Origin: Eubacteriales bacterium | Lineage (GTDB): Bacteria; Bacillota; Clostridia; Oscillospirales; JAAYXM01 | Direction: 5' to 3' | Assembly (NCBI GenBank): GCA_045546975.1 | Contig: JAZQDV010000007.1 | Location: forward strand, 73,176 to 137,175 | DNA: 64,000 nucleotides | Shown: positions 13,501-62,413 of the stretch, in pieces | Numbering within the stretch: the stretch's first letter is position 1 | How the letters are laid out: every line of letters begins with the position of its first letter | The notes under the pieces: generated by a model | Databases searched by the model: none | Told to the model about the DNA's origin: nothing | What the model saw: only the letters and a program-made list of their open reading frames with translations | Program-made: the position numbers and the translations under genes

Positions 13501-16500
13501 GGACTGGGCAGCGTCCGCATCTGAGGAAAAGAGCTCAGTTCGTAACAACAATCTCGTTATGTTGGAAAGCGACATTCAGTATGTAGATGCAACTTCTATG
13601 GATAATGTTACCATTATGAAGTTCTCTGAGGTAACTGAAGAAGAGGTTGAGGTCCAGATCGAGAAAAACAACCTTGTTGCAAAGATAGGTGAAACCGGAT
13701 TCGCATCTCTCGCAGAAGCTATCGTGGCTGCAAATGCTATGACAGGCGATGTCACTGTTGAAATTTACGCTAAGGTTGAATATAACGACGCAACAGCAAG
13801 CCTTACAGGTGCATATGATTCTATCAACTTTGTTGGTAAAACAGAAGATGCTGAAATTTCTATCACCAGAAATGGCTCTAATGGTTACATTTCAGGCGAG
13901 GGCAATGATTGTAAGGTAACATTTACAGACCTTATTCTTTCAAAGCCCGAAGGGCATTACGCAAATGATGCGGGCTTCATGAACATGGCGTTCAGTGTTT
14001 ACAGAGTTGCCTCTGTCAAATATACGAACTGTCAGTTCCCCAACGGTGCATGTGCGGCAGGATGCCCGACTACATATACAAACTGTACTTTTGAAAAATC
14101 TCACGAAAAGTATGCTTTATGGGCATATGGTACAGAGGTTGTAGTTGACGAGTGTACATTCGATGATGACAGAGGTATAAAGATGTATGCTGAGGGCTCT
14201 GCAAAAACAACCGAACTTACAGTTACGAACACGGACTTCTCTAAATTGACATCAAAGCCTGCTATCGTAGCTACACTCGGCCAGAGCATAACTCTTTCAG
14301 GCAATACATATTCTGCCAAGGGTGTTCTCGAGCTTGAGGATAACGGCAGCTCCAACGGTATTGAAATTACTTCCGAGGATGTTGTGACCTGTATCAGTGA
14401 CGCATATCCGGACGGATGCGGTGTTCTTGTTGACGGTGCCATCTATCGTACTGTTGCAGAAGCAGCAGAAGTTGCAGAGGAAGGCAGCACGGTAACACTT
14501 CTTCACAATTCAACAGAAACAGTTGAACTTTCAGAGGGCGTAACCCTTGACAAGAACGGCTTCACTGCTGACGGTGTAACTGTTAAAGTATCTGTTGCCG
14601 CAAAAATCGGTGAGACATATTACGAGACCGTTCAGGCGGCAATCAATGCGGCGCAGAGTGGCGACACCGTTGAAATTCTCCCCGGAGAATATGACCCTAT
14701 CAACATCAGCAGCAAGAATATCACCATTCAGGGTACCGTAGGTGATAACGGTGAATTGCTTACCACCATCAAGGGCGGCAATCCTGCAATTACCGGCCAC
14801 TCTTTTAACGGTACGATTAAGGATCTTAAGATCGTTGATGCATGGAAGGTTATGTATGCAGAACCGGCAGGAAATATAACCGTTGATAATGTTTATGTAA
14901 CCGGTGCTACATACGGTTTCCACCTTGTAGCTTATTCTGAAGGTCTGACATGGACTATCCAGAATAGCTATATGGATTTGCGTTGGGCAAACTCCTTAGG
15001 TGTATACAAAGACGGTGATGCAGAAATCATCATCAAGGGTAACGAATTTGTTTCAACAGATCCGTACTACTCTGATTACGGTGCTCTTCATGTGAATTCG
15101 TTCTTGCCGAATGTAACTGTTGAAGAGAACATTTTCCGTGAAAACGCAAAGATTTACATCGATGCTTCTGTAACGGACACTTCCAACATCAATATTTCCA
15201 AGAACTATCATGCTGACGGTGTTGAAAATGCATTCGCAGATGATACTGACGGCGTGACGGTAAAAATTGATTCGTACTATACCGTAATAGAAGAAGACGG
15301 TACTCTTTCAGGCCTTGTAGAAGTTGTTGATCCCGCCGCAAAAATCGGCGATACAACATACGAAACACTTGCAGCGGCTATCGCGGCTGTCAAGGAAGGC
15401 GAAACAATCACAATGCTTGCTGATACAACTGTTTCAGAGAATGTTACACTTCCTGCAGGCATTACATTTAACGGTAATGGAAAGAAGATCAGCAGAGAAA
15501 ACGGTGCAATTATTTATGCGGGCGGCGAATTGACATTTGAAGGATATACAACTATTGCTAATTTCAATGCCAACGGCAAAACAATTAACATTGGCGAGGG
15601 TGCAACCCTTGAAACAACTGACGGAAGAATGGTTATCGGTCACGGAGCTACATTTAACATTACAGGCTCGATTGCCGATGCGAAAACTGCAGATGTAACA
15701 AATATTACACCTTCCCTCATTGCCCCCGGAGTATCATTCACAGGTGCAGGTGTGAACTTTAATGTAACAAATGCATATGTTAAATTTACAGCTTACTGTT
15801 CTTCAAAAAACAGTAATGCGAGCGGCACATATAACATTAATGTAAATAACAGCATTTGGGAACAGACAGGTTCTTTGGTTTTCTCAGAGCCTACAAACGG
15901 AATGGACCCGACCTTTAACTTCAAAGTTAAAGACAGCGTACTTAACAGCACAAGCCACCTTGTTTTTGCTGTAACAAAGGGCGAAATCGTTTTTGACAAT
16001 TCTGTTGTAAACGAAGGCGTACACAGACAGCTTGAAAACCGCAGCAACCTGACAATTAAGAACGGTTCTGTTGTTTATGCTGCTCACGCAACAAGCTCCA
16101 ACGCAAAGAATCCCGGCACAACTATCGTTGAAAACGCAACTTACATAGCTACCGGTGATTTTAGTGGCTCGGATGTCGGCACAGGCACACTTATTGTTAA
16201 GAAGGGTGCAATTGTGAATATGGGTAAGATTACCAAGGCAAATATCGTTGTTGACGCAACCGATATGGCTGCCGGCGATGTTGTTGGTATCACAGCTAAC
16301 CTGTCCGCCCTTGAAGGTACAATAAGTGTTGTCAATAACAATCTGGACGCTGAAATTGTAGACGGAGCGATTGTTCTTGTTGAAAAACCAGTTGCACAGA
16401 TTGGTGATGAGAAGTTTGCATCGCTCGAAGAGGCATTCAAAGCAGCAACCGATGGATGTACCATCACTTTGATGAGCGACATTACCGTAAGCGAGCTTTG

Positions 16501-18346
16501 GGATTGCCGTTACAACGGTGCAAAGTTCACTGTTCCTGTAACAATCGACGGTAACAACAAGACACTTAAACTCACGGGCGCAGTTGATGACAAGAACTGG
16601 AACACAGTATTCAGATTTGAGGCTGATGCTACAGTCAAGAACCTTACAATCGACGCGAGTGAAGCAACAGGCATCCAGAGAGGTATCTCTGCTAAGTCAA
16701 GCATTACTGTTGAAAACTGCACATTCATAGGTAACGGAACATCAACAAAGCGCGGTGTTATCTTCGGTGAAGGCGCAGGCACAGCACTTTCCGATGTAGT
16801 TGCAACAATTACAAACTCCAAATTCACAAATTGGAGCTATGGCGTTTCTGATAACCAGAGCGGTAAGGATGCAAAGTCTGTTTCTGTTACAGGCTCTACC
16901 TTCATTAACGCAAGCGCACTCTTGAGTGCTTCCGACTCGGTAACATTTACAGGCAATACTGTATCAGACGGTTATGTAAATATCACTTCTTACACCGCAG
17001 CTGATACTGCTACTGTTGTTGCAACAGGCAACAATCTTGTAGGCACTGATGATGAAATTACTGTAAATCCCGAAAACATAACCTCAGATGATTCATTCAT
17101 TACTCCTGTTGCCAAGATTGGCTCTAAGTATTATGAGACCTTAGATAAAGCAATCAGCAAGGCAGCAGTTGGTGACACAGTTGTTCTTTTAACTGATGTT
17201 GAGCTTTCGGATACAATTACAATTCCTACTGACAAGAAGATTACTCTTGACTTAAGCAGCAAGACAATCACAGGTACAGATAATACTGAAAAGAATTTCA
17301 GTCTTATCGATAACCGCGGTGATCTTACCATTACAGGAAACGGTACTATGACTCTTACTGCTACCGTCAACTCCGGATGGAACCGTTACTCTGCAGTTCT
17401 TGCAAACAACCCCGGCGGTAAGCTTACCATTGAAAACGGTACGTTTGAGCACCTCGGTGGCACCGATATGGCTTACGGTATTGACAACCTTACAAACGGC
17501 AAGGGAACCTATGCTGAAACCATAATTAACGGCGGTACAATCAAGTCCACTTACCGTGGTATCCGTCAGTTCCTCAACGGTATTGAAGCACAGAACATTC
17601 TCACAGTTAACGGCGGTACTGTTGAAGGCACTAACAAGTCTATCTGGATGCAGGATCCGAACAAGAACGCAAACACAGGTACACTTACTGTTACTGATGG
17701 CGCTACCTTGAACGGCGACGTGTATCTGACTGTAACAGAAGGTTCTACCGAATGGCCTGTTGAAGTAAGCATTGCTAAATCAGCAGTAAACGGACAGGTT
17801 CTTACTAATGGAAACGAGCCTGCAGGATATGAGCTGGTTGAAGAAAACGGAACCTACGGCGTAATAGAAAAAGAAATAGTAACTCCGTTCAAGGACGCTC
17901 CGTTGTTCTTGGCAGGACTTCCGGATGAAGTTATTGACGGTGTAACATACCACCCCGTTTATATGGCAACCTCTATTGATTCATTGAATTATAGAAAGGT
18001 CGGATTTGATTACACCTTCTCAATTTTCGATACTGAAACAGGCGAGGTTACTTTCTCGGTACCGTATACAACCGAAACAAGTGAGGTATACTCTTCTATC
18101 AGCGATGCTAATACAACATATACAGTTGACAGCATTGGCGGAAACGGTGAATACTTGTTTATGAATAAGTTGCTGTTCCACGCAGAACATTATCACAACA
18201 ATAACACAAAGGTTACCATCACACCGTACGCTATTGATACGAACGGAAACAAAATCACCGGCTGGACAATTGATATGACAAATGAATTCTATAAGTCACT
18301 TCAGTCTGGTGATGTAAAACAGGATATGTTCAAGGAGGGAAACTAA
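10514..18346 (+). CDS. Giant secreted surface protein (2610 aa) with GLUG-like motif blocks and multiple parallel beta-helix-type modules
   Basis: AGGAGG RBS 10 nt before the TTG start. Signal peptide MRLKRIMAMFLCFAMVLSTMGTTVFA|ENT. Two blocks of GG[LI][IA]G motifs. At least 6 recurrences of the module cap V-A-[KQ]-I-G-x-x-x-[YF]-x-[ST]-L-x-x-A. No LPXTG, SLH or dockerin seen. Confidence 0.9.
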   Translation: MRLKRIMAMFLCFAMVLSTMGTTVFAENTAVVSAEATAVSDNNLYVNTDYNSETEGYGVTRFANYNAAYAYAVANNTSATIVVEKNNSISGFCFDNNHKNYTKLAVVIKDGATMGVSLSKWDMTYPVTVEAGGTLTCARPKNASVSNIHIKNKLIIGTEGSDKQAYCYFLSDSYQDCDISIRYNGSITAYNAVMTVQDLDAQGSFTATDSNITVDGAFASATWYATTLTDSDMQINGNQISGGLSDFSGGDNNQLGKVTLNGDSSISFAEGSAVDVAATVTVNGNSYITADTLTVEKNKKINVNGTSSVSAQTLTNNGTIATTSGSTVTAKTVSEESTGTVTIDGEEAAFDESGNLVLPAAPVATVDGVPYTELQAALDAAAAGEGNVTVEILENINLTNVDWNPVTVSAPKYPVVTVNGNGKIITGLNDMLFAGTWAGGSGLIINDLTIADSAIINDKDDTNGNVGVGAFIGFPQASATVTLNNCHLVDSRVEGGHWTGGLIGYAAGYAGNDGPVFMNLTINECSVTGSTITGKGSAGGIIGHATGNAWTQVTITDTTVSGNTVASTGSSTNKAGAVIGTIGAAGQATTVNGVEKTGGVSVAATVSGNTVTSSSTTITTIYGRQGTDTGMLYVSGGEYDNYPIEENVAYAAPIEGYEIADNGNGTWGIAEETILSGAGTQEDPYLIEDIDDLTLFRDNVNNGTDYDGQYVKLMSDIDLTSVENWIPIGAYGSHANEMTFRGYFDGNNKTISNLTVNDTTSTADILGLFGHIHGDGMKNTLEPSVKNLTLTNVNISSTDSASRIGGLAGNPYTCYLENVHVSGTISGGKWTGGIAGNCYTVFENCSFTGTVDSNNQAGGIAGAGDARVYNSKVIGDITATYWAGGIIGNGQEGASAVGCYAKGTVTAESNWYFGVGGIAGVGGHGYEGSVYEDNYFDGEVYLGETKVNAIVVGFVNADGNEAMNTVVDGNSWNTEYYAADTPVVVTADVTSDISPEDWAASASEEKSSVRNNNLVMLESDIQYVDATSMDNVTIMKFSEVTEEEVEVQIEKNNLVAKIGETGFASLAEAIVAANAMTGDVTVEIYAKVEYNDATASLTGAYDSINFVGKTEDAEISITRNGSNGYISGEGNDCKVTFTDLILSKPEGHYANDAGFMNMAFSVYRVASVKYTNCQFPNGACAAGCPTTYTNCTFEKSHEKYALWAYGTEVVVDECTFDDDRGIKMYAEGSAKTTELTVTNTDFSKLTSKPAIVATLGQSITLSGNTYSAKGVLELEDNGSSNGIEITSEDVVTCISDAYPDGCGVLVDGAIYRTVAEAAEVAEEGSTVTLLHNSTETVELSEGVTLDKNGFTADGVTVKVSVAAKIGETYYETVQAAINAAQSGDTVEILPGEYDPINISSKNITIQGTVGDNGELLTTIKGGNPAITGHSFNGTIKDLKIVDAWKVMYAEPAGNITVDNVYVTGATYGFHLVAYSEGLTWTIQNSYMDLRWANSLGVYKDGDAEIIIKGNEFVSTDPYYSDYGALHVNSFLPNVTVEENIFRENAKIYIDASVTDTSNINISKNYHADGVENAFADDTDGVTVKIDSYYTVIEEDGTLSGLVEVVDPAAKIGDTTYETLAAAIAAVKEGETITMLADTTVSENVTLPAGITFNGNGKKISRENGAIIYAGGELTFEGYTTIANFNANGKTINIGEGATLETTDGRMVIGHGATFNITGSIADAKTADVTNITPSLIAPGVSFTGAGVNFNVTNAYVKFTAYCSSKNSNASGTYNINVNNSIWEQTGSLVFSEPTNGMDPTFNFKVKDSVLNSTSHLVFAVTKGEIVFDNSVVNEGVHRQLENRSNLTIKNGSVVYAAHATSSNAKNPGTTIVENATYIATGDFSGSDVGTGTLIVKKGAIVNMGKITKANIVVDATDMAAGDVVGITANLSALEGTISVVNNNLDAEIVDGAIVLVEKPVAQIGDEKFASLEEAFKAATDGCTITLMSDITVSELWDCRYNGAKFTVPVTIDGNNKTLKLTGAVDDKNWNTVFRFEADATVKNLTIDASEATGIQRGISAKSSITVENCTFIGNGTSTKRGVIFGEGAGTALSDVVATITNSKFTNWSYGVSDNQSGKDAKSVSVTGSTFINASALLSASDSVTFTGNTVSDGYVNITSYTAADTATVVATGNNLVGTDDEITVNPENITSDDSFITPVAKIGSKYYETLDKAISKAAVGDTVVLLTDVELSDTITIPTDKKITLDLSSKTITGTDNTEKNFSLIDNRGDLTITGNGTMTLTATVNSGWNRYSAVLANNPGGKLTIENGTFEHLGGTDMAYGIDNLTNGKGTYAETIINGGTIKSTYRGIRQFLNGIEAQNILTVNGGTVEGTNKSIWMQDPNKNANTGTLTVTDGATLNGDVYLTVTEGSTEWPVEVSIAKSAVNGQVLTNGNEPAGYELVEENGTYGVIEKEIVTPFKDAPLFLAGLPDEVIDGVTYHPVYMATSIDSLNYRKVGFDYTFSIFDTETGEVTFSVPYTTETSEVYSSISDANTTYTVDSIGGNGEYLFMNKLLFHAEHYHNNNTKVTITPYAIDTNGNKITGWTIDMTNEFYKSLQSGDVKQDMFKEGN

Positions 18347-23167: not shown

Positions 23168-24304
23168 ATGACAAAACGAGATATCTTAAAAACAAAGCTC
23201 CGCCCCGTTGACGCTTTCATAAAAGAGAATGTCGTTACGGTCATTGCTTTTTTTGCAGCAATTATAACAAGTATTTTCGTACCTGTTGACCGCGAGTATC
23301 TCGGCTATTTTGACTTCAAGACCTTAACCTGCCTTTTCTGCGTGCTTGCGGTTGTATGCGCGCTTCGCAACATAAACTTCTTTTACGTTCTCGCAAAGAA
23401 GATAGTCCGACTTTTTGCAAACGCAAGGCTTTCCATTCTGGCACTTGTGTATATAACCTTTATCGGGTCAATGCTTATCGCAAACGATATGGCACTTCTG
23501 ACCTTCCTCCCGCTCGGGTACTTTGTTCTTACCACAACGGGTAAGGAAAAGTATATGGCGTTCACCTTTATTATGCAGAATATCGCGGCAAACCTCGGCG
23601 GTATGCTGACTCCCTTCGGCAATCCGCAAAACCTGTATCTCTACACAAAATTCAACATCCCGACAGGCGAGTTTTGTTCGATTATGCTCGCACCGTTTGT
23701 TTTGTCTGTCGTCTTAATCACCGTTTGCTGCGTCTTTATTGTAAAGCCCGAACCACTCGAAATCGAGGATGAGAAGGTTTATCTTGAGCCGAAAAGAACA
23801 GTTTTGTATCTCCTTCTTTTTGCGCTTTCCATCGCGATAGTTTTCCGCACAGTACCGTATCTCATCGGACTTGTTATTATCCCGGCGGTACTCTTTTTCG
23901 CTGACCGGAAGGCACTGCGCGATGTCGACTACCCGCTTCTTCTGACCTTTGTTTTCTTCTTCATATTTGCAGGCAATATGGCGCGGATAGACGCAGTTAA
24001 CAACATTTTTTCCTATCTTCTCGACAAGAGCACACTCCTTTTCAGCGTTGCCTCGTGCCAGGTCATAAGCAACGTTCCCTCATCCATTCTCCTTTCGCAG
24101 TTTGCCACAAACTATAGGGACCTGCTTGTGGGTGTAAACATCGGCGGCGTCGGGACAATTATCTCTTCCCTTGCAAGCCTTATAACAATGCGTGAATACT
24201 CAAAGCACAATCCGGGAAAACTCGGACAGTACATATTTGTCTTTTCAATATATAACTTCGGTTTTCTCTTTATTCTCACAGCGTTTATGATGATTATACG
24301 CTAA
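23168..24304 (+). CDS. Anion permease (ArsB/NhaD / citrate-transporter-like superfamily)
   Basis: 378 aa with about 10 TM helices. Contains LTPFGNPQNL, typical of this superfamily. Confidence 0.65.
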   Translation: MTKRDILKTKLRPVDAFIKENVVTVIAFFAAIITSIFVPVDREYLGYFDFKTLTCLFCVLAVVCALRNINFFYVLAKKIVRLFANARLSILALVYITFIGSMLIANDMALLTFLPLGYFVLTTTGKEKYMAFTFIMQNIAANLGGMLTPFGNPQNLYLYTKFNIPTGEFCSIMLAPFVLSVVLITVCCVFIVKPEPLEIEDEKVYLEPKRTVLYLLLFALSIAIVFRTVPYLIGLVIIPAVLFFADRKALRDVDYPLLLTFVFFFIFAGNMARIDAVNNIFSYLLDKSTLLFSVASCQVISNVPSSILLSQFATNYRDLLVGVNIGGVGTIISSLASLITMREYSKHNPGKLGQYIFVFSIYNFGFLFILTAFMMIIR

Positions 24305-24338
24305 AAGCAGTCTGATTTATAAATCAGACTGCTTTTTT
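24303..24338. terminator. Bidirectional terminator overlapping both stop codons
   Basis: AAAAGCAGTCTGATTT-AT-AAATCAGACTGCTTTT. Confidence 0.75.
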
Positions 24339-26945: not shown

Positions 26946-29774
26946 ATGAGTAAAGAAATTTTTATTAAAGGTGCAAGAGAGCACAACTTAAAAAACATAG
27001 ATGTTAAAATCCCGCGCGACAGCCTTGTTGTCGTTACTGGGCTTTCAGGCTCGGGTAAGTCAAGCCTTGCCTTTGATACTGTCTATGCAGAGGGCCAGAG
27101 GCGGTATGTGGAGTCTCTCTCATCATACGCAAGAATGTTCCTCGGCAGGATGGAAAAGCCGGATGTCGACTACATTGAGGGGCTCTCTCCCGCTATATCC
27201 ATTGACCAGAAAACGACATCAAAAAACCCGCGTTCTACAGTAGGAACGGTTACGGAAATTTACGACTATCTCCGTCTTTTGTGGGCGAGAGTAGGCACTC
27301 CCCACTGCCCCGTATGCGGAAAGGTCATTGAGCAGCAGACGGTTGACCAGATTTGCGACAGGATAATGGAGCTTGCTGAGGGTACCAAGTTCCAGATTCT
27401 CGCACCCGTTGTGCGCGGTCGCAAGGGTGAGCACGAAAAGGTTTTTGAGAACGCGAAGAAGTCTGGCTTTGTGCGCGCAAGGGTAGATGGCAATCTGTAT
27501 GACCTTTCAGAGACAATAAAGCTTGAAAAGAATAAAAAGCACAATATTGAGATTATAATCGACCGCCTCGTTATAAAGAGCGGCATTGAGATGCGCCTTG
27601 CAGACTCTATCGAGACTGCGACAAACCTTGCAGGCGGACTTGTTCTTGTCGATGTTATCGGTGGAGAGGAACTTTCATTCTCTCAGAACTATGCCTGCGA
27701 TGATTGCGGAATAAGCATAGAGGAGCTCACTCCGCGCATGTTCTCCTTCAACAACCCCCACGGCGCATGCCCTGAGTGTGCAGGTCTCGGCTCACTTTTG
27801 CGTGTTGATCCCGATTCGATAATCCCCGATAAGTCGAAGTCAATTCTTGACGGTGCGATACACGCATCGGGCTGGGGAAACCCTATACCCGGCTCAATTT
27901 CGCGTATGTACTACGACGGTCTTGCAAAGGTCTATAGCTTTGACCTTTCTACCCCCGTGTGCGATATTCCGGAAGCGGCATATAACGCTCTCCTCTACGG
28001 TACGGGTGGCGAAAAAATCCCCCTGCATTACGACAAATCGTACGGAAAGGGCGATTATACTCAGGCTTTTGAAGGCCTCGTTGCAAACCTTGAGCGCAGA
28101 TACCACGAGACTGCAAGTGAATACTCAAAGGCAGAGATTGAGGAGTGTATGATAAATACACCCTGCCCTAAATGTAACGGAAAAAGGCTTCGAGCAGAGG
28201 CACTTGCAGTTACCGTTGGCGGTATAAATATCGCCGAAATGTGCGAAAAGTCAGTTGTTGACGCACTCAAATTTATATGCGAGGTTGAAGATACCCTTAC
28301 GCAAAGGCAGAAAAAAATAGCTGAGCTTATTCTCCGCGAGATTAAGGCAAGACTCGGCTTTCTCGAGAGTGTTGGACTTTCATACCTCACACTTTCAAGA
28401 AGTGCCGGCACTCTTTCGGGCGGCGAGAGTCAGAGAATACGCCTTGCAACTCAGATAGGTTCTTCTCTTATGGGTGTTTTATATATCCTTGACGAGCCGT
28501 CAATCGGTCTTCATCAGAAGGACAACGCGAAGCTTCTCACGACTCTTGAAAGACTTCGCGACCTCGGAAACACGCTTATCGTTGTTGAACACGACGAGGA
28601 CACTATGCGCGCAGCTGACCACATTATTGATGTCGGACCGGGCGCAGGTGTTCACGGCGGTGAGATTGTAGCAAGCGGTACAATCTCCGATATAATCGCG
28701 CAGCCACGCTCAATCACAGGCCAGTACCTCTCAGGCAAAAAGACCATCCCCGTCCCCGAGGTACGCCGCAGCGGAAACGGAAAGTTTATTGAAATCCGAG
28801 GCGCAAAGGAAAACAACCTCAAAAACATAGACGTTAAAATCCCGCTTGGAAAACTCACCTGCATCACGGGTGTTTCCGGCTCAGGAAAGAGCTCACTCAC
28901 AAACGAAATCCTCTATAAACATCTTGCAGCGTGTCTCAACGGTGCAAAAACGCATCCTGGAAAGTTTGATGAGTTTCGCGGCATAGAGCACCTTGATAAG
29001 ATTATAGACATCGACCAGTCACCTATCGGGCGCACTCCGCGTTCAAACCCGGCAACATACACGGGCGTTTTCGGAGATATACGAAGTCTCTTTGCGATGA
29101 CGCCCGATGCAAAAATGCGCGGATACACAAGCGGTCGCTTCTCATTTAACGTAAAGGGCGGAAGGTGTGAGGCATGCGCAGGTGACGGCGTAAACAAAAT
29201 TGAGATGCATTTTCTCCCCGATATTTATGTCACCTGTGATGTGTGCCACGGTATGAGATACAACCGTGAAACGCTCGAGGTAAAATATAAGGGCAAGAAT
29301 ATAGCAGAGGTTCTTGATATGACGTGTGAAGAGGCATATGAGTTCTTCCGCCATGTTCCAAAAATTGCAAGCAAGCTCAAAACACTCAACGACGTTGGTC
29401 TTGGATATATAAAGCTCGGCCAGTCCTCCACCACCTTGTCCGGAGGCGAGGCACAGCGAGTAAAGCTTGCAACAGAGCTCTCTCGTCGCAGTACGGGAAA
29501 AACCATATACATCCTTGACGAGCCGACAACAGGTCTTCACGTTGCAGACGTACACAGGCTCATCGATATGCTCTCGCTCCTTACCGATGCCGGCAATACG
29601 GTAGTTGTCATCGAGCACAATCTTGATGTTATAAAGACCGCAGACCATATCATCGACCTCGGTCCCGACGGCGGTGACGGTGGCGGCAGAATTGTCTGCG
29701 AAGGAACACCCGAGGAAGTCGCAAAGTGTAAAAAATCATACACCGGCGAATATCTTAAAAATATATTGAAGTAG
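26946..29774 (+). CDS. uvrA: Excinuclease ABC subunit A
   Basis: 942 aa. Two ABC modules ([12 protein letters not shown] and [10 protein letters not shown]), zinc-finger cysteines, LSGGE signatures. Confidence 0.95.
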
Positions 29775-42099: not shown

Positions 42100-42106
42100 G
42101 CACGAT

Positions 42107-42142
42107 AAAAAATGCTCTCTGTAATTACAGAGAGCATTTTTA
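42107..42142. terminator. Bidirectional terminator
   Basis: AAAAATGCTCTCTGTA-AT-TACAGAGAGCATTTTT. Confidence 0.8.
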
Positions 42143-42150
42143 TTGAATAT

Positions 42151-42381
42151 TTAATCATCCTCCAGCAATTTGGAAGGTGAAATGTTCAAAACTTGAGATA
42201 TTTTGAAGAGTGTTTCCAAAGATACACCACGGATAGTGCCTGTACCTTCAATTTGTCCAACGAAATTCACACTCTTTCCTATAAGCTCCGCAAAGGTTTC
42301 CTGCGTATATCCGCATTTCTTTCTATAGTAAGCAATTTTCAAGCCCAAAGTTATATACCGTTCCGGAAATTCAGTCTTCAT
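42151..42381 (-). CDS. XRE-family helix-turn-helix transcriptional regulator
   Basis: 76 aa. YYRKKCGYTQETFAELIGKSVNFVGQIE is a Cro/C1-type HTH. Confidence 0.85.
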   Translation of the reverse strand: MKTEFPERYITLGLKIAYYRKKCGYTQETFAELIGKSVNFVGQIEGTGTIRGVSLETLFKISQVLNISPSKLLEDD

Positions 42382-42454
42382 ATCACACCTCCTCCGTCTG
42401 TTTATATTCTATCAATAAAGAAGGTGGATTATAATTGATTACTATTCTATTTTT

Positions 42455-42484
42455 ATTTACTTTAAGTAAATAATATTGTATAAT
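42455..42484 (+). promoter_or_regulatory. Promoter of the SLOG/DUF1273-like gene with an overlapping 17-bp palindromic operator
   Basis: TTTACT, 17-nt spacer, TATAAT (42479-42484). The palindrome ATTTACTTTAAGTAAAT (42455-42471) covers the -35. A half-site ATTTACTT recurs at 42497-42504. Confidence 0.55.
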
Positions 42485-42521
42485 GATTAAAATATCATTT
42501 ACTTCAAGGAGAATGGGTGCG

Positions 42522-43031
42522 ATGAGGAATACCTGTTGCTTTTTCGGACACCGAAAAATCTATATAACGGATGAGCTGATATCAAAACTGCACAATGTCA
42601 TTGAAAAACTAATTATCGACAACGATGTTGATTGTTTTCTTTTTGGCAGCAAAAGTCAATTTAACGATTTATGCTACCAAATTGTCAGTGAAATAAGAGT
42701 TTGCTACCCCTATATAAAAAGAATTTATGTCAGAGCACATTTTCCTCACATTGACGACAGTTATAAATCCTATTTGCTTCAGGGATATGAGGAAACTTAT
42801 TACCCAAGAAATATAATAAAAGCGGGTAAGTTAGCTTATATTATGAGAAACCGTGAAATGATAGACAAAAGCGAGTTTTGCGTAGTATATTTAGACGAAA
42901 ACTATATACCGATCAAACGGAATAGAGAAGGCATGGATTTGACTGTTCATAGCCCTAAAAGCGGCACGAAACTCGCCTATGATTATGCACTAAAAAAGCA
43001 GAGGACTGTCATAAACATTTTCATAAAATAA
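42522..43031 (+). CDS. DUF1273/SLOG-like protein
   Basis: N-terminal CCFFGHRK matches the DUF1273 (YpsA/YoqJ) signature. Start set at the ATG 10 nt after AGGAG. Confidence 0.65.
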   Translation: MRNTCCFFGHRKIYITDELISKLHNVIEKLIIDNDVDCFLFGSKSQFNDLCYQIVSEIRVCYPYIKRIYVRAHFPHIDDSYKSYLLQGYEETYYPRNIIKAGKLAYIMRNREMIDKSEFCVVYLDENYIPIKRNREGMDLTVHSPKSGTKLAYDYALKKQRTVINIFIK

Positions 43032-43045
43032 AAGACTGAACGGAA

Positions 43046-43309
43046 GGGTGGCGCTTCATAGGGATAAAACGCCAAAAAACCACGATTTTGGCACATAACT
43101 GCATCAAAAAAGCTCCCAACCCGTCAGGGTTGCGAGCTTTTTAATCTTGTTCTGCACTCAAACTTATGATTTTTTGGTGCAAAGCAGTTTTGGGTTAGAT
43201 ATTTTTCGAATTAGAGAAATTAAAAAATGCGGACATACTGACGTATGTCTGTATTTTTTTGTGTACTATAAACGAAAAAGAGCAAGCCAAAACCGTATTC
43301 TCCCTATGA
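43046..43309 (+). mobile_element. 264-bp MITE-like non-autonomous element, copy A
   Basis: Terminal inverted repeats GGGTGGCGCTTCATAGGGA...TCCCTATGAAGCACCACCC. Two internal terminator-like hairpins. No credible ORF. Inserted in the loop of the hairpin AAAAGACTGAACGG/CCGTTCAGTCTTTT. A second copy lies at 61440-61713. Confidence 0.75.
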
Positions 43310-43345
43310 AGCACCACCCAAACCGTTCAGTCTTTTGTCTTTTTG

Positions 43346-43801
43346 TTAGTCTTCGCAGTGGCAGGAGCAACCCCCGTCGCACTCGTCATCAGCAAGGTCG
43401 TCAAGGTCAAACTCAAGCTCTTCACCGCAACCCGGGCAGGAGATGGTACCGAGGGCAAGAATGTCCTCATCAACCATAATGGAATCTCCGCAGGTCGGGC
43501 ATACAACTTCGTAGTGGAAGTCGTCGCAGTCGCAGTCGCAGTCGCAGTCATCGCCACAGTCGCAATCGTCACCGCAAGTGCCGTCATCAAATGCGCCCTC
43601 AAGCTCCAAAAGCTCTTCTGCAACTTCATCGAGCTCATCGCTCATTTCATCTGTGATATCTTCAAGATCTGCAACGGATGCTGCAAGCTCATCGATAACG
43701 TCTACAATAGCAAGGAGAAGCTTCCCTTCCTTTGTGTCAGAATCAATGTCAAGCCCGTCGCAAAGGCCACGAAGATATGCTGCTCTTTCAATTATATCCA
43801 T
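43346..43801 (-). CDS. Highly acidic zinc-ribbon protein with a Cys-Asp repeat (resembles the clostridial CD1247-type family found next to efp)
   Basis: GGAGGA RBS. 151 aa. CPTCG...CPGCG zinc ribbon. The CDCGDDCDCDCDCDD tract is encoded by (GTCGCA)4. Immediately upstream of efp. Confidence 0.7.
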   Translation of the reverse strand: MDIIERAAYLRGLCDGLDIDSDTKEGKLLLAIVDVIDELAASVADLEDITDEMSDELDEVAEELLELEGAFDDGTCGDDCDCGDDCDCDCDCDDFHYEVVCPTCGDSIMVDEDILALGTISCPGCGEELEFDLDDLADDECDGGCSCHCED

Positions 43802-53369: not shown

Positions 53370-53942
53370 TTGAAAAAAAACATGTCATTTATTTTAGTTT
53401 TGGTATTGGTCTGCGTGTTGGGTCTGGTCGGTTGTTCCAACCCGAGCAACGAGCAAAATGATTACGATATACCGGAAAATACAAAGTCAAACCTTTCTGA
53501 AATTGCAGTTGAAGAGCCCTTGGATTTAGAAACAAGTTCCGGAGTCGGTGTTGAAATCGCTTTTGAAAGTGAGAATATGCTTATTTTCTACGGCGAGTTT
53601 GGCTTGTTTGGTTATGACTTGAAATCAAGTGAATTAAAGTTCTCCGTTGATTTTGTAAAAGCAGTTGGTATTGAAGGAAGTGTTCAGGGCAGTTACGGTA
53701 CAGCTGTTGATGTGAGTGAGGATGGTAATACAATTATTATTTCCGAATACAATGTCGAAGGAGAAACAAGAGGAAAAACTTGTTATATTGATATACCCTC
53801 TATGACCTATGAACACAGTGAATATCAGCCTTTAGAAACTGCTTTCCTAAAGGAAAACATCAACGGCTCTATCTATCCGGGCTTAAAAATCAGTCAGATA
53901 AAATATATGCTTGGCGATAAAGAATGGAATTTGTTTGAATAA
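53370..53942 (+). CDS. Lipoprotein, unknown function
   Basis: TTG start behind AAGGAGG. Lipobox LGLVGC|S. Confidence 0.6.
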   Translation: MKKNMSFILVLVLVCVLGLVGCSNPSNEQNDYDIPENTKSNLSEIAVEEPLDLETSSGVGVEIAFESENMLIFYGEFGLFGYDLKSSELKFSVDFVKAVGIEGSVQGSYGTAVDVSEDGNTIIISEYNVEGETRGKTCYIDIPSMTYEHSEYQPLETAFLKENINGSIYPGLKISQIKYMLGDKEWNLFE

Positions 53943-53966
53943 AATAGCTTCCAATTAGTCGAAAAT

Positions 53967-54006
53967 AAAAAGAGGCTGTGATTATAAATAATCACAGCCT
54001 CTTTTT
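53967..54006. terminator. Bidirectional terminator
   Basis: AAAAAGAGGCTGTGATT-ATAAAT-AATCACAGCCTCTTTTT. Confidence 0.8.
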
Positions 54007-54007
54007 A

Positions 54008-57691: not shown

Positions 57692-58420
57692 ATGAAAAGG
57701 AACATTAAATGGACTGTTCTCTCGCTTGTGATTCTTTTTGCGCTTCCGCTTTTGGTCGCAAAGTTTGCAGGCACAAGCGGAATGGCACTTTGCTTTATAA
57801 TGTTCTTTGCCGTCAACCCTGTATTTTTTATTGCTGAGGGCATTTCCTCAGGTAAAGATATCAAACGGCATTGGTTTATGCCACTTGTTTCGGCGCTTAT
57901 ATATCTGCTGTCCACGTGGATAGTATTTGATATGGGCGAAACCGCTTTTGTGCTTTATTCCGGCATTTACCTTGCAATAGGTATTATTGTAATGTTAATC
58001 ACATCGGCAATATGCTATATCTCCGCAAAAAAAGAAATTCCAAAAGAGAGAATCACAATCTACGCAGTACTTACTTTATTCCTGATTGTATTTGTAGCCA
58101 TTATAACGGTTTTGGGAGTGTGGAAGCACAACAGAACCTTTACCGTTCACAGATGGATGGAAAATGTCGAGAACAGACACCACATAGTTAACAATATGCT
58201 TTCAAAGCACAAGCTTGTTGGTATGACCGAAAAGGAAATCATTGAACTTCTCGGCGAGGAAACTGAACACGCACCAGAGAGCTTCAAATATCCCCGAGGG
58301 GAGTTTCCGGACGAAAGCACGCTTACATATTATCTCGGTGTGGATTTTATGGATAATAATTGGCTTATTATTTCTATCGAAAATGGCAAAGCAACAAGTT
58401 ATAAAATAGGTCTTACATAA
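57692..58420 (+). CDS. Membrane protein with a C-terminal BamE/SmpA-like small domain
   Basis: Five predicted TM helices, then GMTEKEIIELLGEE, reminiscent of SmpA/OmlA-type folds. First gene of a tightly spaced 4-gene operon. Confidence 0.55.
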   Translation: MKRNIKWTVLSLVILFALPLLVAKFAGTSGMALCFIMFFAVNPVFFIAEGISSGKDIKRHWFMPLVSALIYLLSTWIVFDMGETAFVLYSGIYLAIGIIVMLITSAICYISAKKEIPKERITIYAVLTLFLIVFVAIITVLGVWKHNRTFTVHRWMENVENRHHIVNNMLSKHKLVGMTEKEIIELLGEETEHAPESFKYPRGEFPDESTLTYYLGVDFMDNNWLIISIENGKATSYKIGLT

Positions 58421-58433
58421 GGAGAAATGTAGT

Positions 58434-59378
58434 ATGAATAAAAAAGTATTGATAATAAGTTTAGTGATATGCTCTTTATTTCTTGCTGCCTGTCAGCATG
58501 ATTTGCCGCTGAATGAAACTGCCGAAATCGATGAGCAAGGCGTAATCAAAGGTCAGTTCGGTGAGCAGCTTGAAAAGAAGCCTATCAGAATGTTTAATGT
58601 TGACGGTGATTTGTATTACGATTCAGGACTTGTGAGCGAAAGCACTCCCCGTTGCGGAACGATGGATGGAGAGCTTACAAATACCGTTTCCGAAAACGAA
58701 ATACCTCTTAAATCAGGAGAAGCAAACTTCGATATTGACGGTTATCAGCACGCAACAAGTATTACAAAAGAAGTAAATATAGATGGCAAATGGCTTATTT
58801 TCAAGAAATATAACACCTATGAAAAAAACCTTGAAGATTTGAAATATTGCTATTACATAAAAGGTCATTTGAACAATGCTGCAGTAGATAGTGAATTTGT
58901 AGTTTTAACAGATAACATAAATGTTACTTTTAATGATGTCATTTCACCGATGTTAAGTTTTGTGAAAGAAAACGATAACAACGACTATCGTATATCCCAT
59001 AATATGATTGTATCCGGCGATAAATGGGGTATCACACTCTATACTGATAATGTAACTCCAAAAGGATTAACATTAAAAATTGAGCAGTTCGGTGGTAATC
59101 CTTCAGGAACCCTTGAATACGGAACACCATACACTCTTGAAACAACGGTTGATGATGAATGGCAAGAAGTGAAAACAATAACCGGTGAGCCTTTGGTTTG
59201 GACTCTGCCCGCTTATGGCATTAAGATGAACGACATTACGGAAATGAATATAAATTGGGAATATGGCTACGGAAAATTAAAGCCCGGTTTTTACCGTCTT
59301 AGGAAAGAAATCATGGACTTCAGAGAAAGCGGAGATTACGATAAGGAAACCTACGAGGTATATTTTACTATTGAGTAA
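58434..59378 (+). CDS. Lipoprotein, unknown function
   Basis: AAGGAGA RBS. Lipobox LFLAAC|Q. 314 aa. Confidence 0.6.
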   Translation: MNKKVLIISLVICSLFLAACQHDLPLNETAEIDEQGVIKGQFGEQLEKKPIRMFNVDGDLYYDSGLVSESTPRCGTMDGELTNTVSENEIPLKSGEANFDIDGYQHATSITKEVNIDGKWLIFKKYNTYEKNLEDLKYCYYIKGHLNNAAVDSEFVVLTDNINVTFNDVISPMLSFVKENDNNDYRISHNMIVSGDKWGITLYTDNVTPKGLTLKIEQFGGNPSGTLEYGTPYTLETTVDDEWQEVKTITGEPLVWTLPAYGIKMNDITEMNINWEYGYGKLKPGFYRLRKEIMDFRESGDYDKETYEVYFTIE

Positions 59379-59391
59379 GGAGGAATGACAA

Positions 59392-60894
59392 TTGAGAAAA
59401 TATGTAGGCTACATTCCGGCGGTACTCTTTACTGCATTTTATCTGTTTTCAGGACTTTCCGGAGTAAGTTTAACAATGCCAATGATCGTGTTTTGGCTTG
59501 TTTGCTTTTGGGTTTCTGCCTTTCTCCTGCACAAAGGTCTGTTCTGGGGCGGGGTGTTCGGTTTCGTTCCTGCGATAAATATGCTTTATATGGGCGGTGG
59601 ATATAGGGGACAAGTCATAAATATTGAAATCCCCTTAGGTGTTTTGTTATTGCTATTTTATGTACTCTTTGGCATATATCTTTGGAAGAAAAGGCGCGAC
59701 GCCGCTGCCCTCAAAGTAGAAACCAAGGAAATAGTCCTTTTGGCAGTCAAGTTTTTACTTACAATTGCGGTTATAATGATAAGCGCCTATATCGGTGTGC
59801 TGTCAAGTCTGATACTGACCTCAGAAGGCATACACAGTGCTATTGTTTTCGTTGGTGCATTGCTTCTCCCCTCTTTGCTATTTCCTCTGATATGGCTGAA
59901 GAAGAGAAAGCGCTTCTTCCTTATATGGCTTGCACCCGCCCTTGTTTATTTTATCGTCTTGGGCATTAACTACGGAATCGTCAGGTACGACAAGAGCATT
60001 ACCGTAGACACAGCACCAAACATTAATGTACATGAATATCTCCCGTTTAAGGAAGATTCAAAAATAGTAAAGCTCAATAGTAAAACGCTGAAGTTCACAG
60101 ATAATTTACCGATAATTGACGGTGCGGCGGCACTGTTTCCTGTTTACTCCGCATTTGTCAATGCGACATATCCTGACACAACGGAACTTCGTTATGACGG
60201 TCCTTTCCAGTATAACAACACTCCCGACGGTTACCGTCTTTTAGCGGAAAAGCAAACGGATATCTTCATCGGCGTTTACCCGTCTGAAGAGCAGCAGGCG
60301 TACGCAGAACATCGTAATACAACTTTCCGATACACACCTATCGGAGCGGAGGGCTTTGTGTTCTTTGTCCACAAGGATAACCCGATTGACAATCTCACAA
60401 CAGAGCAGCTTCGGGGTATTTATTCAGGTGAGATAACTAATTGGAGTGAGGTCGGCGGTAAAAACGAAAAGATTGAGGCCTTCCAACGAAACGAGGGTAG
60501 CGGAAGCCAGAGTATGCTGAAAAGGTTTATGGGCGACAAGCCCATAATGGATGCACCTAAAGAGCTCCGAAACGATTTGATGGTGGGTATTATTGAGAGA
60601 GTATCCAACTACAAGAGCAAAACCAATTCTATCGGCTTCTCGTTCAGATTTTATGTTGAGGGCATTATAAAGAATCCCGATATAAAAATGGTTTCCATCG
60701 ACGGTGTTGCACCTACGGCAGAGAACATCAAAAGCGGCAAATATCCCGTTGTGACGCCGATATATGCAGTAACGTATGAAGAACAACCAAGTGAAAATGT
60801 TTCTCGACTTCTTGATTGGATTCTTTCAGACGAAGGACAGTACATTATTGAAGAAACCGGCTATGTCGGTATAGTATCGGACTTTGCAGAATAA
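59392..60894 (+). CDS. Polytopic membrane domain fused to a PstS-family (phosphate-type) periplasmic binding domain
   Basis: About 200 aa with 6 TM helices, followed by a PBP domain. Contains IDGAAALFPVYSAF and NLTTEQLRGIYSGEITNWSEVGG. Confidence 0.65.
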   Translation: MRKYVGYIPAVLFTAFYLFSGLSGVSLTMPMIVFWLVCFWVSAFLLHKGLFWGGVFGFVPAINMLYMGGGYRGQVINIEIPLGVLLLLFYVLFGIYLWKKRRDAAALKVETKEIVLLAVKFLLTIAVIMISAYIGVLSSLILTSEGIHSAIVFVGALLLPSLLFPLIWLKKRKRFFLIWLAPALVYFIVLGINYGIVRYDKSITVDTAPNINVHEYLPFKEDSKIVKLNSKTLKFTDNLPIIDGAAALFPVYSAFVNATYPDTTELRYDGPFQYNNTPDGYRLLAEKQTDIFIGVYPSEEQQAYAEHRNTTFRYTPIGAEGFVFFVHKDNPIDNLTTEQLRGIYSGEITNWSEVGGKNEKIEAFQRNEGSGSQSMLKRFMGDKPIMDAPKELRNDLMVGIIERVSNYKSKTNSIGFSFRFYVEGIIKNPDIKMVSIDGVAPTAENIKSGKYPVVTPIYAVTYEEQPSENVSRLLDWILSDEGQYIIEETGYVGIVSDFAE

Positions 60895-60908: not shown

Positions 60909-61421
60909 ATGAAGAAAATGGCATGGGTTTTATTGATAATAGTTCTCCTGGCTATTGGCGGATGCAAAGACAAAAAGGACCTCTATCTCCCCGAAGCGAA
61001 AAACGATAAAGTATTTACCACCATTGGCGGTGAAGATACGACACATCAGGGCGACGGTTATACCTTGACTGTGACTGCAAAGAATTACCGTTACGAAAAG
61101 GACTATGACGACGGTAATTTAGAAGAGGCGTGGGACTACACAAAAAAAGAAGATGTAGAAATCAGAGTCACAACATATAAAAACTCGGATGAGATCTCTG
61201 CAAGACGCAGATTCTTAAGGGAGAACGATGACTATATCTTTGAGGACTTAACCGGTTTTTCTGTTTGCGGAATCGAGCCCGACGGAGATACATTGTGGTT
61301 TAATATTCATGAAGCAAACGGAACAGTCTATATTGTTTCGTGGGAATATCCAAAAAACACAAAGGAAAATCTGAAAAATGAACTTGCCCAAATAGCGCAA
61401 ACTTTCAAGACAGTAAATTGA
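60909..61421 (+). CDS. Lipoprotein, unknown function
   Basis: AAGGAG RBS. Lipobox LAIGGC|K. 170 aa. Confidence 0.6.
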   Translation: MKKMAWVLLIIVLLAIGGCKDKKDLYLPEAKNDKVFTTIGGEDTTHQGDGYTLTVTAKNYRYEKDYDDGNLEEAWDYTKKEDVEIRVTTYKNSDEISARRRFLRENDDYIFEDLTGFSVCGIEPDGDTLWFNIHEANGTVYIVSWEYPKNTKENLKNELAQIAQTFKTVN

Positions 61422-61439
61422 GAAAATCCCGTACACATT

Positions 61440-61713
61440 GGGTGGTGCTTCATAGGGAGAATACGGTTTTTGATTGCTCTTTTTCGTTTATAGTGCACAA
61501 AAAAATACAGACATACGTCAGTATGTCCGCATTTTTTAATTTCTCTAATTCGAAAAATATCTAACCCAAAACTGCTTCGCACCAAAAAATCATAAGTTTG
61601 AGTGCAGAACAAGATAAAAAAGCTCGCAACCCTGACGGGTTGGGAGCTTTTTTGATGCAGTTATGTGCCAAAATCGTGGTTTTTTGGCGTTTTATCCCTA
61701 TGAAGCGCCACCC
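61440..61713 (-). mobile_element. 264-bp-class MITE-like element, copy B (inverted relative to copy A)
   Basis: The reverse complement matches 43046-43309 with about 5 substitutions (counted by eye). Inserted in the loop of a different hairpin, AAAATCCCGTACACA/TGTGTACGGGATTT. Confidence 0.75.
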
Positions 61714-61738
61714 TTTGTGTACGGGATTTATTTTCATT

Positions 61739-62413
61739 TTAACCGTTTGTTGCGTTACCGTCGCCGGAAACGGGGATTTTCTCCCCAAGGAAAGTTGGTT
61801 CGGGCTTATATATTGTCTTTAAGAAATCCTTGCACCTTGCAAGAATTTCGCGTGCTTCACGGTATGATTGCCCTCGATACGTCCGATAATCAGCGTCTAC
61901 GCCATATACTTCAATACCAAGCTTTTCGGCAATATACAAAGCTCGGTACAGGTGATACTTTTGCGTCACAACTATAATCTTATCGGCATCAAAAACTTCC
62001 TTTGCGCGGTACATACTCTCGTATGTTGAAAAGCCTGCGTGGTCCATGAAAATATCATCCGAGGGAATTTGCGAATCAAGAGCTACCTGCTTCATTGTAT
62101 TTACTTCGTCATACACCTTTCTTCCGTGGTCCCCGCTCATAATTATTTTGGGTGCCGCGCCCCCGTTGTAGAGTGCAATTCCTCTTTTCAGTCTGTCCGC
62201 AAGCATATCGCTCGGTTTTCCGTCGTCCTTGACCTGACATCCCAGCACCACGATACAGTCAATGTCGCGAAGTTCCATTGCTTCTTCGGGAGTAAGGATA
62301 TTTTCGCCGCCAACGTTCTTTACATGAGCGTTTATGGTAAAAACCGTTACTGCCCCCAAAATTACGAGGCCAAGAAGCGCAATTATAATTTTTTTAAGAA
62401 CTTTTTTCTTCAT
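61739..62413 (-). CDS. SanA/YdcF (DUF218) family protein
   Basis: N-terminal TM anchor. Contains IVVLGC...DRL and VTQKYHLYRALY motifs. Confidence 0.78.
   Translation of the reverse strand: MKKKVLKKIIIALLGLVILGAVTVFTINAHVKNVGGENILTPEEAMELRDIDCIVVLGCQVKDDGKPSDMLADRLKRGIALYNGGAAPKIIMSGDHGRKVYDEVNTMKQVALDSQIPSDDIFMDHAGFSTYESMYRAKEVFDADKIIVVTQKYHLYRALYIAEKLGIEVYGVDADYRTYRGQSYREAREILARCKDFLKTIYKPEPTFLGEKIPVSGDGNATNG

Follow-up and report, generated by a model that had tools for sequence, protein, structure and literature searches.

Elements of the IS30 family are recognized by target duplications of 2-3 bp and inverted repeats of 20-30 bp, and IS30 itself generates 2-bp duplications and prefers palindromic hot spots that have a common sequence consensus. 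Terminator hairpins with no sequence consensus are the targets of IS1272/TnSha1, a DDE-type element of the IS1182 family in staphylococci (Firmicutes), which is autonomous (1.9 kb, with 16-bp inverted repeats) and inserts into hairpins with stems of 7-13 bp, often located just downstream of genes; the cut is made in or at the foot of the stem, the stem-loop is partly or wholly removed, and no duplication is formed (PMC4923244, PMC5678879). Wan et al. proposed a model in which one route (pathway c) starts with an attack on the loops of a cruciform after its extrusion and duplicates the loop alone; they set this route against the loss of the stem-loop that they had seen with IS1272 (PMC4923244, PMC5678879). 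IS1630 (IS30 family, Mycoplasma fermentans) is reported to target and duplicate inverted repeats, with duplications of 16-26 bp and TIRs of 27 bp (PMC3317919). IS1397 and ISKpn1 (IS3 family) and several IS110-family elements insert in REP palindromes, and this specificity is set by the transposase (PMC1525189). Among miniature elements, pneumococcal SPRITE resembles a rho-independent terminator, and Correia, RUP, and ERIC are fold-back MITEs; the target duplication, where known, is usually TA (PMC10969869; PMC3049150), and insertion of these elements into host terminator loops is not reported in the review (PMC10969869).

In the window (the whole stretch of 64,000 nucleotides that was analyzed), two copies of a 274-bp non-coding element were located, copy A at 43046-43319 on the plus strand and copy B at 61440-61713 on the minus strand. 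Copy B is the reverse complement of copy A with 5 substitutions and 0 indels (98.2% identity). The TIRs are 19 bp long, with 18/19 positions matching at the tips, and belong to a longer 26-bp repeat that matches at 23/26 positions. The left TIR (GGGTGGCGCTTCATAGGGA, 61695-61713, minus strand) and the right TIR (GGGTGGTGCTTCATAGGGA on the plus strand, 61440-61458) of copy B were obtained as exact pattern matches, and the TIR pattern GGGTGGYGCTTCATAGGGA is present at both ends of each copy, with 4 occurrences in the window against 0.05 expected by chance. From one subfamily to another, the tips at the two ends vary together (pairs 1/277 and 4/274). The element has no coding capacity, each of the six frames being either broken or occupied by nothing more than spurious ORFs that extend into the flanks. 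Two such ORFs of the window (43147-43479 and 61328-61612; 94-110 aa for ORFs of this kind) begin in the MITE and exit into the flank, and ORFs of the same kind are annotated as genes in public metagenomes (P0121, P0122, P0243-P0248), so that 'hypothetical protein' clusters are overcounted. Seven copies with sharp ends were found at seven loci in all, and the site of copy B is empty in three contigs of a related species (L009-L011). Since dispersed copies, sharp ends, and one orthologous empty site demonstrate mobility, the element is a real mobile element of the MITE type in uncultured, gut-type Oscillospiraceae (a placement taken from the names of homologues), and the family is previously undescribed.

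Copy B falls between the stop codons of two convergent genes. The one on the plus strand is a lipoprotein-like ORF of 170 aa (60909-61421), and the one on the minus strand is a DUF218/SanA gene (61739-62413). Its target is a terminator with a 10-bp stem (CCCGTACACA/TGTGTACGGG) that is cut between the arms. The left half (AAAAT followed by CCCGTACACA; in full, AAAATCCCGTACACA) was read from the sequence at 61423-61437 and is followed by TT at 61438-61439, which is AA in the orientation of the element and is one of the two copies of a 2-bp target duplication or else one half of the loop. On the other side, a second TT, also read from the sequence (61714-61715), precedes the right half (TGTGTACGGG followed by ATTT; in full, TGTGTACGGGATTT) at 61716-61729, which was delimited from the sequence, the hairpin of the relatives, and folding. 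When the flanks of copy B were joined without the element, they folded at about -23 kcal/mol. This layout, with copy B in opposite orientation to copy A, TT on both sides, and a split stem, had been proposed in the initial annotation of the window, and every detail of it matches the sequence.

Contigs carrying the corresponding locus were reached via SanA homologues (83% protein identity), and the empty site of copy B, AAATCCCGTACACA-TT-TGTGTACGGGATTTT without the element, was found in the three Logan contigs L009, L010, and L011; exact look-ups of the SanA and lipoprotein sequences next to copy B returned no record. The spacer between the SanA and lipoprotein genes in these contigs is 41 bp (GAAAATAAATCCCGTACACA-TT-TGTGTACGGGATTTTATC), and the hairpin fills most of it. 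In blastn alignments between the window and the relatives, colinearity stops exactly at 61437/61716. In a more distant relative (L012, 79% identity), the stem CCCCGTACAC/GTGTACGGGG is kept and the loop is different. From the intact hairpin in L009-L011 and the stem in L012, it follows that the terminator is ancestral and that the element was inserted at its centre. The empty site of L009 reads TT on the strand where the window has AA..AA, and the pre-insertion loop of the window lineage is therefore inferred rather than seen. The reconstruction of the pre-insertion site that the initial annotation had called for was thus obtained for copy B, the hairpin of the relatives being both intact and empty. 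At first sight, the inverted symmetry around the copies continues beyond the TIRs, as would be expected if the element itself had made it, through extended termini or palindrome growth, at a place where no terminator had existed before. The initial annotation had named extended termini as the finding that would overturn its proposal; such an origin is refuted by the empty site, since the hairpin is intact without the element in L009-L011, its stem is conserved with a different loop in L012, and the flanking stems differ wholly between copies.

At lower window coordinates than copy B, a segment of about 2.8 kb (58047-60851) is missing in L009 and L010; it holds a protein with a Big_14 domain (58434-59378) and a PBP-like membrane protein of 500 aa (59392-60894). 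In these two contigs, the lipoprotein gene is directly followed by the orthologue of the 242-aa ORF of the window (57692-58420; DUF2651 in L009) and then by an aldo-keto reductase gene.

Copy A is likewise placed between convergent genes, a 182-aa ORF (42483-43031, plus strand) and a gene for a protein with a CD1247 N-terminal domain (43346-43801, minus strand). Its flanks are AAAAGACTGAACGG-AA on the left and AA-A-CCGTTCAGTCTTTT on the right; the sequence and the folding of the flanks define a left terminator half at 43030-43045 (AAAA, GACTGAACGG, and AA) and a right half at 43320-43336 (AA, A, CCGTTCAGTC, and TTTT). The joined flanks folded at about -22 kcal/mol with the junction inside the loop. 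Comparison with the closest relatives (L015 and L016), in which the terminator differs and the CD1247-like gene converges directly on a polysaccharide-deacetylase gene, gave no orthologous empty site for copy A. Adjacent to copy A, a two-gene cassette (42100-43333) was noted that consists of an XRE-type HTH gene (42151-42381, minus strand) and the 182-aa ORF, which has no family match. Cassette and copy A are all missing from L015 and L016, and copy A is therefore at the edge of a strain-specific insertion.

Gene callers often predict spurious ORFs across MITEs, and for this reason further copies were sought by a protein-database search with the six-frame peptides of the element, followed by an exhaustive HMMER search (one match). 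Five more members were obtained in metagenome contigs (L013, L014, L017, L018, and L019). The copies in L013, L014, and L017 are each exactly 274 bp long, with 88-89% identity to the window copies and 97-99% among themselves (98.9% between L013 and L017), and this group has CGGCGG tips versus GGGTGG in the window copies. The copy in L018 is 277 bp long with about 60% identity and GGGCGG tips, and that in L019 (275-450) is a 176-bp one-arm form with the TIRs and arm 2 only, without arm 1, both ends being of the GGGAGAAT type. With regard to L019, arm 1 (about 105 bp and itself palindromic) seems to be a module that is gained or lost as a whole.

The targets of these members were compared with those of the window copies. 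The L013 copy is inserted in AAAAACACACCTTG-CTA/CAAGGTGTGTTTTT (the slash marks the insertion point) between convergent genes, and the L017 copy in AAAAAACTCC(TCT)CGT-A/TGG-ACGGGAGTTTTTT. Those in L018 and L019 each lie within a larger terminator-like stem (AATAACTCC.../...GGAGTTATT and AAATACCCCT/AGGGGTATTT, respectively), beside an extra small inner hairpin. At the L014 copy, a convincing hairpin is absent, and only a plausible right half-terminator (CGGGGGGATTTTT) is seen. Terminator-like hairpins thus enclose six of the seven copies, and four (A, B, L013, and L017) are in a simple loop, in each case with a perfect or near-perfect stem, both arms intact, an A-run before, and a T-run after. 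The stems GACTGAACGG, CCCGTACACA, ACACACCTTG, and ACTCC..CGT are all different, each is found once only in the window, and no sequence is common to the target stems of the family. The cataloguing of copies and inspection of their flanks that the initial annotation had recommended hence agree with its reading: its description of the two window targets as unrelated in sequence and each split at the loop holds and extends to L013 and L017, and its proposal that DNA structure is recognized rather than a fixed sequence is supported by the insertion of copies into hairpins with unrelated stems.

Two of the metagenome loci had additional peculiarities. In L018, the MITE is separated from the right arm of the terminator around it by a 32-nt hairpin (GCAGTTTTGAA...TTCATAAAACTGC, 527-567) with a stem similar to the base of arm 2 of the element (GCAGTTTTG.../...CAAAAC); this hairpin may be a remnant or footprint of an older copy. 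The L014 copy (noted at 232-261) combines a left tip of the window type (GGGTGG) with a right tip of the L type (CCGCCG), without a left terminator arm or a duplication, and looks like the product either of recombination between two copies or of an insertion with partial loss of the hairpin, as with IS1272.

Because only about 0.2-0.3% of window positions are in loops of perfect hairpins whose stem measures 8-10 bp or more, the location of both window copies (2/2) in such loops is far beyond chance. After removal of both elements (63 kb remaining), the number of distinct perfect hairpins with a stem of 10 bp or more was about 20, and their loop junctions make up 0.19% of window positions and about 1.7% of the approximately 7.2 kb of intergenic-like sequence. 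At p = 0.017, at least 4 simple-loop insertions in 7 have a probability of about 3e-6 (calculated here). The number of flank pairs spanning the junction was rejected as a test statistic for lack of stringency (8 or more such pairs were counted at 39-45% of random sites), and loop membership and free-energy thresholds were used instead. Most hairpins of the window are without a MITE, only 2 of about 20 being occupied.

Several other repeats of the window were recorded in the course of this analysis. Many terminators are near-perfect palindromes with 14-20 bp per arm and a centre of 0-2 nt (for example, 557-590, 24303-24336, and 42108-42141; another at 53690-53731 in pre-insertion coordinates, corresponding to about 53966-54007 of the window), and they are bidirectional because the A-runs and T-runs are included in the arms. 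A 47-nt direct repeat (26969-27015 and 28799-28845, 83% identity, 1830 bp apart) within a 942-aa ORF (26946-29774) seems to reflect a duplication inside a two-domain protein rather than a mobile repeat. A single ORF of 2610 aa is present at 10514-18346.

An excess of copies in loops might also have arisen from essentially random insertion, if selection spared only the loops of terminators shared by convergent genes, where the stem is re-formed by the repeats of the element and termination is taken over by its internal hairpins. Such filtering would suit the empty-site spacer, which at 41 bp is mostly hairpin, the predicted transcript fold, in which the flank stems and the TIR stem are stacked, and the presence in the element of terminator-like hairpins that seem built to make it harmless in a loop. 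It is nevertheless unlikely, given that hairpin loops account for so little of the approximately 7 kb of intergenic-like sequence in the window, that four independent insertions at or next to the loop would be improbable even in a 41-bp spacer, that other MITE families are commonly found at other intergenic positions (PMC10969869), and that a transposase that targets hairpins is directly documented (PMC4923244, PMC5678879).

Flanking dinucleotides in the orientation of the element were AA on both sides in copies A and B, as had been pointed out before, and also in L018, versus TA and CA (left and right) in L013, CA and TA in L017, and AG and TA in L014. Of the two explanations offered at the outset for AA, namely a 2-bp duplication or a preference for A-rich loops, the first fits the three AA/AA copies and does not extend to L013 and L017, which show no 2-bp duplication. 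These two differ from each other by only 1.1%, and it is thus unlikely that both have lost a duplication by decay since they were inserted. We give roughly equal weight to a 2-bp staggered cut in the subfamily with GGG tips, which fits the 2-nt centre of the empty site, and to blunt insertion into A-rich loops of 3-6 nt.

The same flanks bear on a possible HUH (Y1) transposase, which would move the element as single-stranded DNA, as with IS200/IS605 miniatures, and insert it 3' of a short motif exposed in a loop, in fixed orientation and without duplication. In keeping with such a transposase, six of the seven copies have an A just 5' of the left end (element orientation), no target duplication is seen in the two most recent subfamily copies (L013 and L017), and the element is very rich in hairpins, with both strands folding equally well. 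The true TIRs, however, reach the very tips and co-vary between the ends, features that IS200/IS605 elements do not have; no common motif of 4-5 nt precedes the left end (ACGGAA, CACAAA, TTGCTA, CGTCCA, GCAAAA, and CGGGAG); and there is no HUH gene nearby. Transposition by an HUH enzyme is accordingly judged distinctly improbable.

The fold of the element was predicted with RNAalifold from four and then six sequences, with the same architecture both times. The TIRs pair into a terminal stem (columns 1-26 with 252-277), and the sequence between them forms arm 1 (27-135) and arm 2 (145-251). Both arms are long, imperfect palindromes, and at the tip of each, an A-run and a T-run enclose a GC-rich stem of 7-11 bp with a 4-nt loop. 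Compensatory changes were counted in 22 of 103 predicted pairs against 7.4 +/- 1.9 in shuffles (0/500 reaching 22) and 0-3 in shifted-register controls, a count to be read in view of the few sequences and of a structure derived from the same alignment. Substitutions that define the subfamilies keep pairs, the clearest being the replacement of AAA/TTT by CTG/CAG in the four-sequence alignment (columns 29-31 and 128-130), and substitutions private to single copies disrupt them. This pattern is what one expects of active master copies under structural constraint and of inserted copies that decay.

The predicted transcript structure is strong (z of about -14), and together with the covariation it might indicate a duplicated structured RNA gene or regulatory cassette rather than a transposon. 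No family in Rfam matched the element at the gathering threshold or at relaxed E-values, no promoter-like site was found inside the element in a scan of copies A and B, and the two strands, when compared for a sign of the transcribed one, folded equally well, so that the constraint looks like palindromy at the DNA level and not like that of a single transcribed RNA. Against an RNA gene there are also the marks of a transposon, namely TIRs, sharp boundaries, both orientations, unrelated loci, and an empty site, and an identity as RNA gene or cassette is considered very improbable.

The apical hairpins scored as intrinsic terminators in the terminator scan, hairpin 1 on both strands. In copy B, hairpin 1 at the tip of arm 1 (61616-61653) consists of an A-run, GCTCGCAACCC, a TGAC loop, GGGTTGGGAGC, and a T-run, and hairpin 2 at the tip of arm 2 (61499-61537) of an A-run, a stem, a GTCA loop, a stem, and a T-run; the corresponding hairpins of copy A are located at 43106-43142 (hairpin 1) and 43222-43260 (hairpin 2). 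Hairpin 2 shows changes between G-U and G-C pairs as well as compensatory changes, and L018, at 60% identity, keeps both apical hairpins with other stem sequences. The internal hairpins are predicted to terminate transcription, and a transcript from either neighbouring gene would reach one of them within about 70-100 nt.

Taken together, these data are best explained by a MITE on which a transposase probably acts in trans, picking out palindromic DNA that can form hairpins. In the mechanism that we propose, a transposase encoded elsewhere would move the non-autonomous 274-bp element and pick its target by DNA shape, that is, a palindrome that is probably extruded as a cruciform or hairpin. The ends of the element would be joined within the loop or at its edge, by a cut that may be blunt or staggered by 2 bp with duplication of the loop dinucleotide, and both stem arms would be left intact. 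The internal A-run/T-run hairpins would then probably substitute as bidirectional terminators for the two convergent genes, and with these replacement terminators the insertion would be nearly harmless. A wider proposal is held only tentatively, and we regard it as possible but doubtful: that a shape-reading transposase, integration into loops with intact arms, and the evolution, under selection that shows in the covariation, of two bidirectional terminators of its own would make the element a 'terminator-hopping' MITE that is nearly neutral to the host.

The search for the source of transposition was carried out in several collections. No full-length IS or transposase with these ends was found in the window. 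When GTDB genomes, JGI metagenomes, and viral contigs were scanned with the exact TIR pattern (GGGTGGYGCTTCATAGGGA), which is too strict for the variable tips of the family (CGGCGG and GGGCGG), only isolated chance hits on unrelated soil contigs came up. A conserved internal 23-mer had no match in viral contigs, and plasmids and phages yielded only noise when compared with the element by blastn.

Other classes of element were considered as relatives and rejected. These were IS630/Tc1-mariner-type MITEs with TA duplication (AA on both sides in the window copies and L018, and TA on one side only in the L subfamily), miniatures derived from IS200/IS605 (clear TIRs in the MITE and left flanks without a common motif), Tn3-derived TIMEs (their 5-bp duplication and 38-bp GGGG repeats being absent here), IS110-type guided insertion (unrelated targets), and integron attC sites.

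Targets chosen by structure would explain how such elements spread in gene-dense genomes without killing genes, the terminators of convergent genes being ubiquitous safe harbours. Elements of this kind can change 3'-UTRs and termination in gut Clostridia; they also break short-read assemblies and can be mis-annotated as ORFs, which was the route to the extra copies here. If confirmed, the family would be a clean case of a mobile element bearing replacement terminators, and insertion into the loop with intact arms would be a third outcome beside the removal of the stem-loop by IS1272 and its duplication by IS1630. The principle has already been published for staphylococcal and mycoplasma insertion sequences, and no new field is opened.

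The initial annotation knew of no such targeting for an element of this type; hairpin targeting is in fact already documented for IS1272 and IS1630, and the comparison with these and other systems is as follows. Like IS1272, the MITE is found in hairpins without sequence consensus (six of the seven copies), and pathway c of the IS1272 model matches the window copies if AA is a duplication. Unlike IS1272, it inserts in the loop and leaves both arms intact in copies A, B, L013, and L017, only L014 being compatible with partial deletion, and it is non-autonomous, 274 bp long, and bounded by repeats of 19-26 bp. It also differs from IS1630, which duplicates the whole inverted repeat, in that its targets are split and at most 2 bp are duplicated. 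The repeat length of the MITE is compatible with the IS30 family, its flanks are ambiguous as to a duplication (AA/AA in three copies), and its targets, unlike the IS30 hot spots, have no sequence consensus. REP-targeting insertion sequences use one repeated, sequence-defined family (REP/PU), in contrast to the unique host terminators with unrelated stems that were found here. With SPRITE, Correia, RUP, and ERIC, the MITE shares a small, non-coding, multi-copy form with inverted-repeat ends and strongly folding transcripts, but no sequence relation to them was found. The principle of structure-directed insertion is thus already known, and this MITE differs from the described systems in the outcome, insertion into the loop with intact arms, and in the targets, which are unique terminators.
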